Source of the DNA: a virus
Lineage: Duplodnaviria > Heunggongvirae > Uroviricota > Caudoviricetes
IMG/VR virus record: IMGVR_UViG_2541047097_000015
Reading direction: 5' to 3' (one strand)
Length of the DNA: 4,733 nucleotides
Every line of letters starts with the position of its first letter. The stretch's first letter is position 1. The position numbers are program-made. Below are positions 1-3,000 of the stretch, in pieces.

Positions 1-3000
1 AATGATGTCGTTATACGTACAACTCTCTCCACCCGGAGTTACCGTGCTGCGGCGCGCCAGCTGTTTAATGCGCGGATCCGGAGCATCGTAAGAATCCGGT
101 AACGGAAGCCCTTCACCGTAGGCCATGCCGTTGGACTGTCCGGCAAGCACAACCACGTAGAACCAGTCCGGCTTAGATGAAGGGCCGACCTGTGGATCTC
201 CTTCAATAGCCACCGCCTGCATCAGTGTGTACGGCGTAATGGCAACCGGTCCGCCGTATGGCTGCCAGCCCTCTTTCAGTTTGTGTGTCAGCTTTTCCGC
301 AAGGTCTGACGGCGACGCCGCCCTGACAACATCATAGTGTTTAAATGCCATGAATCCTCCCGGCCGGGATAATATTGTGAGTAAAATAAGGAGCGGGCTG
401 AAGTCCGGAAGTTACAGGACAATGGCAGAAGGAAGACTACAGCCCGAAATACGAAAAAGGCCGCGCAGTTGCGCAGCCTTATGAATCCTGGTTAAAATGA
501 TTTCGATTATTAAAACGAGTATCTCATGCAATTGCCCGAACCCACTCGGGCTTTTTTACATGTAAAAAGGCCCCTGCTATGAGAGGCCTTGGTATATGCC
601 TAATCTCTGTATACTGCATGGTGCCGGGTGCCTCCCGGTGAGTTCGGCCTGGTACCACCGAACCCGTGTCGATAATGAATCACAAGCAAGGATTTTTCAC
701 CAGTCGCCCCTCCACACAGGGGGATTCACCATGCGAAATTTTTTTAACAAATGCTCAGTCTGACAGGCAACTGTCAACTGACTGAATTGTGACACAGATT
801 ACACTTGTTACCCACATACCACGAATCAGGTTATGCCTCAGTCATTATTAAACTGCACTTCAGCAAATCCGGAGCCTGATTCACAGGTACTGGATTTGAT
901 TGTGACAGTCATTCCTGTCAACTGAGCACTTTGCAGTAACGGTTGCAGATTCCAGCGACTGGTCCAGTATTCTTTCCCGTCAACCTTCACTGTAAATGTG
1001 TCATCCTCATTATACTTGGAAAACTCAATTTTACCTTTAGCACAATCCGCCGCCATTGCATTAACAGAAGCTAATGCAAATAAAACCGCCATAAACATCT
1101 TCTTCATGCTTAACTCCTTTATTTACCCGTTGTATATAAAAACTGTGACTTTCTGTTCAGAAACGCTGCAGCTGTATTACTTTCCCATAATGTATTGTTT
1201 ATTTTTATAACAGGCCTGTCGCCAGTTATCTGACATTCTGGTTGACTCTCTTCATTCACGGCGCGAACAGAACGCGCCCCCTGATGATGGCAATTCAGTA
1301 TAACGGCCACAGTCCCCAGTATCGCTGATATATTATTAAAGGATATTCTCCCCACTCTGACACCATCCTCTCCCCGATACTCCGGAAGCACATTGCTGAT
1401 TCGCCCCCAGTTCAGAGTGAGGTCCACGTCTCCCGGCGTCATCGTATACACAGGAGCAGTTTCAGACAGTGCCTGACGAAATTCTCTCTGTATCTGCCTG
1501 AAGCGTAAGGCTTCTGCTGTGACAGTGACAAAACGCAGAACTGCTCTGGATGCATCTCTGGTCATTGTATTACCACTGAACTCCATTAACGCCAGATATG
1601 ATGAAACCAGTGAGTGACGACTGATTTGCATTCCGGAACGTTCCAGCGCTGCGACACGTTGCAGAGTGGTATAACTGCTGTCCGTTGTCATGGAAACCGT
1701 TGTCACACCGGGCACTGATATATGTGTAAAATCTGAAAAACGGTAGAAAGTATTTGTTGCCGTATTAACGAACCCGGCCACATATAAATTATTTTGCTCA
1801 ATAATCAGACGAAGATGGTCAAAACGCGCCTGATAGACATCAAGCCCTCGTATATCCACAGCAAAATAACTGCCCGGTGGGGTGTGGTTAATAACAGACA
1901 CCGATGTGGTCCCCTGAGATATATGTTCAAGAGGGGTCGATATCTCTGTCCGTATACTATTTAACGAAGAGACATAACTTTGTTGGGTCGAAAAGTCTAT
2001 CGTAAACTCCCGGGAATAGGATACCGAAGAAAAACCCAGTAACAGGCACAGTACCCATTTAAATAATATACACTTCATATACAGGTGTTCCTTTTGGCTG
2101 AAGTAATCAGCACCAGACCCGGCGCAGATATAAAAAAGGCCCGCAAAAGCGAGCCTGGTAAATAAATATGGCGCGTTGTACTGGATTCGAACCAGTGACC
2201 GATTGCTCAGAAGGCAATTGCTCTGTCCGGCTGAGCTAAAAACGCAGAATACCGATAATGGACCGCCATCGGGGACTCGAACCCCGCGAAACCAGCTTCG
2301 AAGGCTGGCGCTCTGTCCCGATGAGCTAATGGCGGTATGTGATGGTGGCCCTTGCTGGATTTGAACCAGCGGCCTGGCGATTATGAGTCGCTCGCTCTCA
2401 CCACTGAGCTAAAGGGCCGGGCGCAGGATAATAACGTTACGAAATCAATGTTGCAAGCATTCAAGAATCACCTGGTTAAAAATTACCCTTGCTTCCTCCA
2501 CCAGCGCATTCACCATGTCTATCCGAGATAAGTGGCACAAAAAAACCCGCTTGTGGGCGGGTTTTGTTTGCTTTTGCCATCACGTACAAAATCGGCAAAA
2601 TATCAGATTTGCATGAAATATATGCCTTTCAATCTACTTTTGCAACACTTTGCTTTGAAAATGCCGCCTTTTGTTTTGAACGCGTTCTCATTACAAACAA
2701 TAAAGCCTCACTATCCAGTCGGTGAAAAATGTGTTTCATTGCAACCCAGTGACGAGTAAATGTTTTGGACCAGTTTTTAGTTGTCACTCCCACCAGTAAT
2801 GCCAGCTCCTTGTATTCATAACCTTCCCCACCAAAAAGTTCTGCTTTTACTGCCTGCGCCGCCAGCCAGATTAATTTTTTCAGGCGTTCCTGCGTTTTCC
2901 CTGCAATTTTTCTGGTACCGGATTGAGTATTAAATTCATTCCACGCCCACTGTGTTATCGCGATCTGATATTCCCAACAAATACTCCCGCTGTAACACCA

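Follow-up and report, generated by a model that had tools for sequence, protein, structure and literature searches.

The DNA analysed here (the window, 4,733 nt) is the Caudoviricetes record IMGVR_UViG_2541047097_000015 of IMG/VR and carries the genes of Shiga toxin 2 (Stx2). The element in question is a pair of hairpins at 534-588, which sits inside the 486-bp gap between stx2B (838-1107, minus strand; open reading frame (ORF) with Pfam SLT_beta, E = 2.6e-48), its upstream neighbour, and the 5' part of a nanS-p/yjhS-type gene (1-351, minus strand; DUF1737 N-terminus, Pfam E = 1.1e-16), its downstream neighbour. A previous sequence-only reading of this stretch had described two GC-rich hairpins facing each other across an AT tract (552-568), the left one a terminator for the plus and the right one for the minus strand, and had proposed that they insulate the toxin genes and stop the late transcript after them. 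This is a genuine, functional feature, described as early as 2014: its hairpins are the directional terminators of two named small RNAs (sRNAs), AsxR and EcOnc27, and their convergent arrangement, or dyad, is already published (Tree et al. 2014; reviewed by Sy & Tree 2021).

The left hairpin, which is the AsxR intrinsic terminator (534-557, plus strand), has a perfect stem of 6 bp (GCCCGA/TCGGGC, 534-551; five of the six pairs are GC) closed by the loop ACCCAC and followed by a T6 tail at 552-557. The right one, the intrinsic terminator of EcOnc27 and its family STnc100 (564-590, minus strand), is built from (AA)GGCCUCU/AGGGGCC(UU) with the loop CAUAGC and a U5 tail at 568-564. On the plus strand it reads GGCCCCT/GCTATG/AGAGGCC at 569-588, or 567-590 with the AA/TT extension, and its 7-9 bp are five GC pairs together with a U.G and a U-A, to which two A-U pairs may be added. 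The sequence between the hairpins, TTTTTTACATGTAAAAA, is exactly 552-568. Folded as plus-strand RNA, the left hairpin reached -11.1 kcal/mol (z = -4.13) and, as minus-strand RNA, the right one reached -13.5 kcal/mol (z = -3.55), with none of 200 shuffles as good in either case.

Both hairpins are GC-rich and adjoin a U-rich tract on the transcribed strand, and neither has a usable U-tract in reverse: behind the left one the minus strand reads AAUUGC, and behind the right one the plus strand reads UUGGUAUA. A general terminator scan called the left hairpin as a plus-strand terminator and missed the right one because two U were absorbed into its stem; a custom detector run over 401-900 yielded exactly three terminators, at 534-551 (plus), 589-568 (minus) and 480-457 (minus). 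Each hairpin is a one-directional intrinsic (Rho-independent) terminator, the left for the plus and the right for the minus strand. The structural description given earlier is thus upheld, since sequence, folding and detector agree on the facing hairpins around the AT tract, and folds, U-tracts and detector on their strands. The orientation-specific wobble pairs of the same description were confirmed in part. There is one such pair, U584.G573 in the right stem on the minus strand, which turns into C.A on the plus strand and is worth 2.5 kcal/mol (with this mismatch the right hairpin attains only -11.1 kcal/mol as plus-strand RNA); the plural was an overstatement, as the left stem is entirely Watson-Crick and equally stable on both strands.

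The two RNAs that end at the hairpins

AsxR (EcOnc02), a 54-nt Hfq-binding anti-sRNA that antagonises FnrS, was located at 504-557 on the plus strand by Rfam RF02703 and by its published sequence. The Rfam match (504-556, plus strand; 88.1 bits against a gathering threshold of 63, E = 5.5e-14) spans model positions 1-53 of 53 with the consensus base at each position, and the left hairpin belongs to the consensus structure of the family. The published sequence aligns with 504-555 without mismatches over 52 nt. The gene was reported to lie "282 bp 3' and antisense to stx2AB" (Tree et al. 2014), a distance that is reproduced in the window (838 minus 556). The same work reported a 54-nt RNA by northern blot that is destabilised without Hfq (Tree et al. 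2014, Table S2), a primary 5' end mapped by RNA ligase-mediated rapid amplification of cDNA ends (RLM-RACE), and a pairing of the 5' variable region with the FnrS terminator loop (Tree et al. 2014). The mapped 5' end corresponds to C504, 30 nt upstream of the left hairpin, and a size of 54 nt therefore puts the 3' end near 557. The putative AsxR promoter is at 469-498 (plus strand), with TTGCGC as -35 (469-474), an 18-nt spacer and TAAAAT as -10 (493-498). It scored 8/12, which is below the scan threshold, and its -35 is weak; C504 comes 5 nt after its -10, and both elements recur in related loci. Another promoter-like site on the plus strand (345-373; ATGCCA, 17 nt, GATAAT; 9/12) overlaps the start codon region of nanS-p and is oriented towards AsxR; transcripts from it, should it be active, would likewise stop at the left hairpin.

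On the minus strand, the STnc100-family sRNA known as EcOnc27 and equated in the literature with the sRNA103 of Gruber & Sperandio occupies 558-763. Its Rfam match (RF02076; 763-558, 207.7 bits against a gathering threshold of 47, E = 2.8e-49) covers model positions 1-206 of 206, and the right hairpin is the terminal helix of the STnc100 consensus. The two model matches stop two bases apart, each closing with a helix that coincides with one hairpin of the pair. Moreover, the published 35-nt northern probe for EcOnc27 matches 585-619 exactly and is antisense to the minus-strand RNA. The published bands for this RNA are at ~235 and 247 nt, the 247-nt form being Hfq-dependent and destabilised without Hfq (Tree et al. 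2014, Table S2), and both AsxR and EcOnc27 were recovered by Hfq crosslinking (Tree et al. 2014). In two later papers STnc100 is located 3' of stx2 and linked to PasD, a relationship given in the preprint of Zhu, Shabalina & Storz (2026). As to its function, the literature on EcOnc27 holds an up-regulation of fimZ on overexpression and an in-silico match to stxB, and nothing else.

The 5' end of EcOnc27 can be approached by comparison. Among the window and ten related loci (described below), conservation begins near 803, ~40 nt ahead of the Rfam start, irrespective of what precedes it: stx2B, stx1B, a transfer RNA (tRNA) terminator or Q. An invariant TCNCAATTCAG block was present in 11/11 loci, with a -10-like CACAAT at 791-786 that is preceded in the window by TGT. 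The real 5' end is probably further upstream than the Rfam start, at ~790-808. Since the start of homology and the published sizes of ~235 and 247 nt agree, this suggests that the Rfam model is 5'-truncated by ~30-45 nt for phage copies. A 253-nt RNA (810-558) folded with z = -4.1, and in it the terminator stayed a separate 3' element.

We consider it almost certain that two convergent sRNA genes of a Stx2a prophage, both for Hfq-binding RNAs, meet with their 3' ends at 534-588. AsxR is transcribed on the plus strand from C504 and would end at the left hairpin and its T6, at ~557; EcOnc27 is transcribed on the minus strand downstream of stx2B and would end at the right hairpin and its U5, at ~560-564. 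The mature RNAs would then abut with little or no overlap, and the AT "palindrome" would be two U-tracts placed tail to tail. A stem followed by oligo-U is the usual Hfq-binding module of such sRNAs and, by analogy with other Hfq-dependent sRNAs, each hairpin may supply one. In this reconstruction, family membership, folds, conservation and covariation come from the present analysis, and expression, sizes, Hfq binding, the AsxR 5' end and the action of AsxR on FnrS come from the literature. It leaves two of the functions proposed earlier without their object: the plus-strand transcript reaching the left hairpin is AsxR, with its 5' end 30 nt upstream, and not antisense transcription from the lysis side, and the right hairpin, as indicated by Rfam and the northern probe, is the 3' end of EcOnc27/STnc100 and not a dedicated stop for the late transcript.

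Several points weigh against this interpretation. The exact 3' ends of AsxR and EcOnc27 are inferred (a Term-seq set for strain Sakai exists, GSE143631), and U5 is a short tail for an efficient terminator. The published expression data apply to this dyad by transfer, from one that is identical but lies in another phage backbone, the upstream Q region of the window being different from those of Sakai Sp5 and 933W. In addition, neither the promoter scan nor inspection disclosed a convincing sigma-70 promoter for EcOnc27 between the stx2B stop (838) and the STnc100 start, the candidates TGTAAT (803-798) and TGT-CACAAT (794-786) being weak, and EcOnc27 may be processed from a longer transcript rather than be an independent gene. 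A perfect TTGACA at 777-772 was discarded as a promoter element for this RNA, as it has no matching -10 and is deleted in Stx1-type copies.

The last of these points leads to another explanation, namely that EcOnc27 is the processed 3' untranslated region of the stx2AB or late transcript and that the right hairpin is primarily the terminator of the Q-independent stx2AB messenger RNA. Besides the promoter result, it draws on the ~235/247-nt sizes, which put the 5' ends just ~30-45 nt past the stop codon, and on the tandem STnc100/tRNA arrays of other Enterobacterales, in which many copies are without a terminator of their own and which suggest co-transcription followed by processing. However, in the non-Stx phage 611R1 the unit starts right after a terminator-like hairpin and T-run that follow tRNA genes, which argues for a promoter of its own; the TCNCAATTCAG block is invariant whatever the upstream gene; and the unit exists without stx in two phages. 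We regard this explanation as doubtful.

Conservation of the dyad in related loci

The stretch from stx2B to the dyad (440-840) is 100% identical to that of 933W, Min27 and Stx2 II-type phages, and it matched 367 records of the phage collection (197 at ≥99% identity; 233 over ≥80% of the query). The 106-bp core (495-600) was found in 873 of 5426 complete E. coli genomes, with a median of three copies and never annotated. To these we added ten diverged loci which, with the window, make 11 E. coli/Shigella lambdoid phage loci. STnc100 was present in 10/10 of the fetched loci, and a convergent terminator 16-23 nt from the STnc100 terminator in 9/10 of them (10/11 with the window). By chance, an opposite-strand terminator within 60 nt is expected in 3.5-5.7% of cases, as estimated on ~925 kb of related loci.

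The left partner is not always the same. Phage BP-4795 (Stx1) and phage 7888 carry an EcOnc03/AgvB-type RNA with the same hairpin, and seven other loci a different sRNA-like unit with its own hairpin and a run of T6 to T12. This unit, found on the plus strand (in locus orientation) of L003 (~1370-1445), L007, L008, L009 and L010 and, in a more distant form, of L005 and L006, is ~75 nt long, ends in ...TTCCTTGCCGCCCGCGTCTCCCAGCGCGGGC followed by T6-T12, has a predicted promoter of TTGCGC, 17 nt and TATTAT, and had no Rfam match at E <= 0.01. It may be an EcOnc RNA that Tree et al. left unnamed, perhaps from the EcOnc08/21/42 group. PasA and PasC were rejected as candidates for this partner, since in the preprint both lie beyond the esterase gene, beside the holin.

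The exception is the Stx2c phage 2851 (L002, 1405-1483), which keeps the STnc100 terminator only, with no convergent terminator or AsxR/AgvB-type gene adjoining; likewise, all 17 Stx2c-converting records of the phage collection match only 617-840 of the window. On the other hand, the non-Stx phages vB_EcoS-611R1 (L006) and PhiR12_2 (L008) have the full arrangement at the same place. As phages without stx have the dyad and an Stx2c phage lacks its left half, its distribution among the phages assigns it to the late-region backbone and not to the toxin insertion. A terminator associated with a stx moron would travel with stx and be absent elsewhere, which is not the pattern observed. A tie of the module to stx is therefore not supported.

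The stems themselves have changed while keeping their pairing. In the right stem, 89.9% of the cells are paired and 4/9 pairs have changed on both sides, with a covariation score of 0.287 against 0.120 for shuffled alignments (reached in 0/500) and ≤0.158 for slid controls. The left-stem variants also keep pairing through double changes (for example GCCCGCG/CGCGGGC versus GCCGCTC/GAGCGG) and the T-run of the left hairpin is invariant in 10 related loci; these variants were compared by eye and by energy and not in one column-wise count, which the unequal loop lengths of the two left-hand sRNA families in the alignment preclude. The related loci supplied 11 distinct hairpin variants, of which nine were more stable in the sense fold, one was tied and one was less stable. 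Selection on the RNA folds, as postulated from the window, is therefore plausible, both for the compensatory changes of the right stem and for the preference for the sense fold. The central spacer is not conserved, since ACATGT, GCATGT, GTCCATAAG and GCCCACAAG all occur.

These data also bear on the symmetry of the DNA. A repeat search detected a near-palindrome of 26 nt at 548-573 (GGGCTTTTTTACA/TGTAAAAAGGCCC; 13-nt arms, 92% complementary, 0 nt apart), which is made of both facing stem arms and their U/A tracts and has the AT tract as its core. It could be taken as a cruciform, a protein-binding palindrome or a recombination junction, or the inverted repeats could be due to chance, and the position of the dyad at a mosaic boundary, with many relatives diverging near window position 617 or 552, would fit such a junction. 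Against this, both hairpins belong to curated RNA families (E values of 5.5e-14 and 2.8e-49), the stems change while pairing and U-tracts are kept and the spacer is not, and both AsxR and EcOnc27 have been detected experimentally. A role at the DNA level, or mere chance, is thus highly improbable, and the near-palindrome is best read as a by-product of two facing terminators, each with a GC stem and a U-tract.

STnc100 extends far beyond Stx phages. An exact 21-mer of its core was found in at least 120 stretches of species-representative genomes (Kosakonia, Enterobacter, Pantoea, Erwinia, Rahnella, Klebsiella, Citrobacter, Salmonella and others), often in tandem arrays of 2-7 copies interleaved with tRNA genes; examples are L083 4087-5956, L045 894-2010, L044 6323-7018 and L089 4825-5482 on the minus strand and L077 2035-3651 on the plus strand. 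Model positions ~33-153 make up the conserved core; the terminator part at the 3' end is variable, and in many copies no terminator could be detected. Of 41 distinct STnc100 3' ends from many genera, nearly all had a GC-rich hairpin and a U-tract behind it, their stem sequences being unrelated. In the other genera, a back-to-back partner was found in ~5 of 75 STnc100 copies with a detectable terminator. Since this is near the chance frequency, the convergent dyad seems largely confined to the E. coli/Shigella lambdoid lineage and is not a general property of STnc100.

Tandem terminators and the surrounding genes

The third terminator detected is a second one for the minus strand (447-480; stem 480-457, tail UUUCGUAUUU at 456-447) and lies between the dyad and nanS-p. 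Its sequence, AAGGCUGCGCAACUGCGCGGCCUU followed by UUUCGUAUUU, folds at -18.3 kcal/mol (z = -4.71) and is stronger than the right hairpin. Its stem contains the predicted AsxR -35, TTGCGC; in the loci with the other left-hand sRNA family this motif is kept and the hairpin has decayed. With tandem terminators at 589-568 and 480-457, late transcription must pass both to reach nanS-p. Q-modified transcription would read through the right hairpin and 480-457 into nanS-p and the lysis genes, and the Q-sensitive stop proposed by the sequence-only reading is compatible with the established biology of Q.

This bears directly on the insulator proposed for these hairpins, by which the left one would block antisense entry into stx and the right one would be a Q-overridable stop before nanS-p and the lysis genes. 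Both are directional terminators in the orientations needed, two minus-strand terminators stand in tandem between stx2B and nanS-p, the weak promoter-like site at 345-373 could feed antisense transcription to the left hairpin, and it is established for lambdoid phages that Q-modified RNA polymerase resists intrinsic terminators; moreover, the reason for the dyad arrangement has been called unclear (Sy & Tree 2021). Nevertheless, the sole plus-strand transcript documented here is AsxR, which starts 30 nt before the hairpin, and the same module in phages without stx, together with the loss of its left half in phage 2851, shows that it is neither stx-specific nor required next to stx. A literature search for a terminator described after stxB, or for read-through data there, returned nothing usable. 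We find an insulator unlikely, with the reservation that such a role could be additional to that of the sRNA ends and not an exclusive alternative to it.

A joint reading, by which the dyad is an interlock between lysogeny and lysis and more than two sRNA ends, is speculative and, in our opinion, rather improbable. In the lysogen, polymerases that start at the stx and tRNA promoters and are not modified by Q would be kept out of nanS-p and the lysis genes by the tandem terminators and the opposing AsxR promoter. Upon induction, Q-modified polymerase would overrun both terminators and shut AsxR off, occluding its promoter and generating a 54-nt antisense RNA of perfect complementarity. The 16-23 nt spacing, kept despite the exchange of the left-hand sRNA family, would then be a selected geometry.

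ORF calling and Pfam searches over the window placed all of its genes on the minus strand. They encode a DUF968 protein (3687-4691), RusA (3315-3674), a lambda-type antiterminator Q (2629-3324; PF06323, E = 3.9e-91), three tRNAs (2169-2418), Stx2A (1119-2078; RIP domain), and the stx2B and nanS-p-type products already mentioned; homologues of the latter in related phages are annotated as yjhS or as 9-O-acetyl-N-acetylneuraminic acid deacetylase. Just downstream of Q, a symmetric hairpin (2542-2565) with U7 on the minus strand resembles the tR' of the late promoter leader, and region 2535-2620 (minus strand) gave weak, sub-threshold Rfam matches to isrK, isrJ and leader families. There is also a minus-strand terminator (2156-2137) between the tRNAs and stx2A.

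The window is a mosaic that is intact in neither the phage nor the genome collection. While its stx2B-dyad stretch is identical to known phages, the Q-RusA-DUF968 part is just ~88-94% identical to other prophages. No record of the phage collection covered 80% of the window, and seven E. coli genome records did so, with ~91-94% identity and matches that begin at ~700 or 787.

Identifying the hairpins as sRNA ends prevents a false claim of a new insulator and directs attention to the reason why convergent dyads are found at this site, with the late promoter on one side and the lysis genes on the other, and to a possible gating of Q-independent read-through by their terminators. Regulatory sRNAs flank the toxin genes of Stx phages. 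Among them, AsxR acts through FnrS and chuS to link the Stx2 prophage with the use of haem by the host, and EcOnc27/STnc100 is among the most widespread prophage sRNAs.

Comparison with known systems

The closest known system for the plus-strand element is the AsxR/AgvB/EcOnc03 family of anti-sRNAs (RF02703, RF02702; Tree et al. 2014), with its conserved 3' part of ~42 nt and its GCCCGAACCCACUCGGGC-U6 terminator. The element at 504-557 is AsxR itself, an RNA without difference from the published one; what differs is the phage backbone upstream, where the lambda-type Q (PF06323) sets the window apart from the records that share the dyad at 99-100%. For the minus-strand element it is STnc100, of which the window has a full-length match, placed after the late promoter and before the genes for the sialate esterase and for lysis.

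As a pair, they represent the type example, Sp5-like, of the convergent sRNA dyads of lambdoid prophages (Tree et al. 2014; Sy & Tree 2021). To the published description our survey adds that the left partner may belong to a non-Rfam sRNA family, that, within the wider STnc100 family, such dyads are for the most part limited to the lambdoid phages of E. coli/Shigella, and that the Stx2c phage 2851 is devoid of the left partner.

Two other systems are similar in part. The bidirectional intrinsic terminators between convergent E. coli genes, seen by full-length RNA profiling, consist of a single hairpin flanked by an A-tract and a U-tract. Like them, 534-588 ends the convergent transcripts of both strands over a distance of a few tens of bases, and it shows an A-tract/T-tract symmetry. 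In contrast to them, it is not a single hairpin serving both directions but two hairpins packed tail to tail, each with its own U-tract and acting in one direction. The second is tR' and the short pR' transcript that ends there (lambda 6S RNA; StxS, Sy et al. 2020). The likeness lies in an intrinsic terminator inside the late transcription unit, a stable Hfq-binding sRNA in lysogens and the need for Q override to express the late genes. However, tR' comes directly after pR' and upstream of stx, where the window has the hairpin at 2542-2565, and the dyad is downstream of stx.

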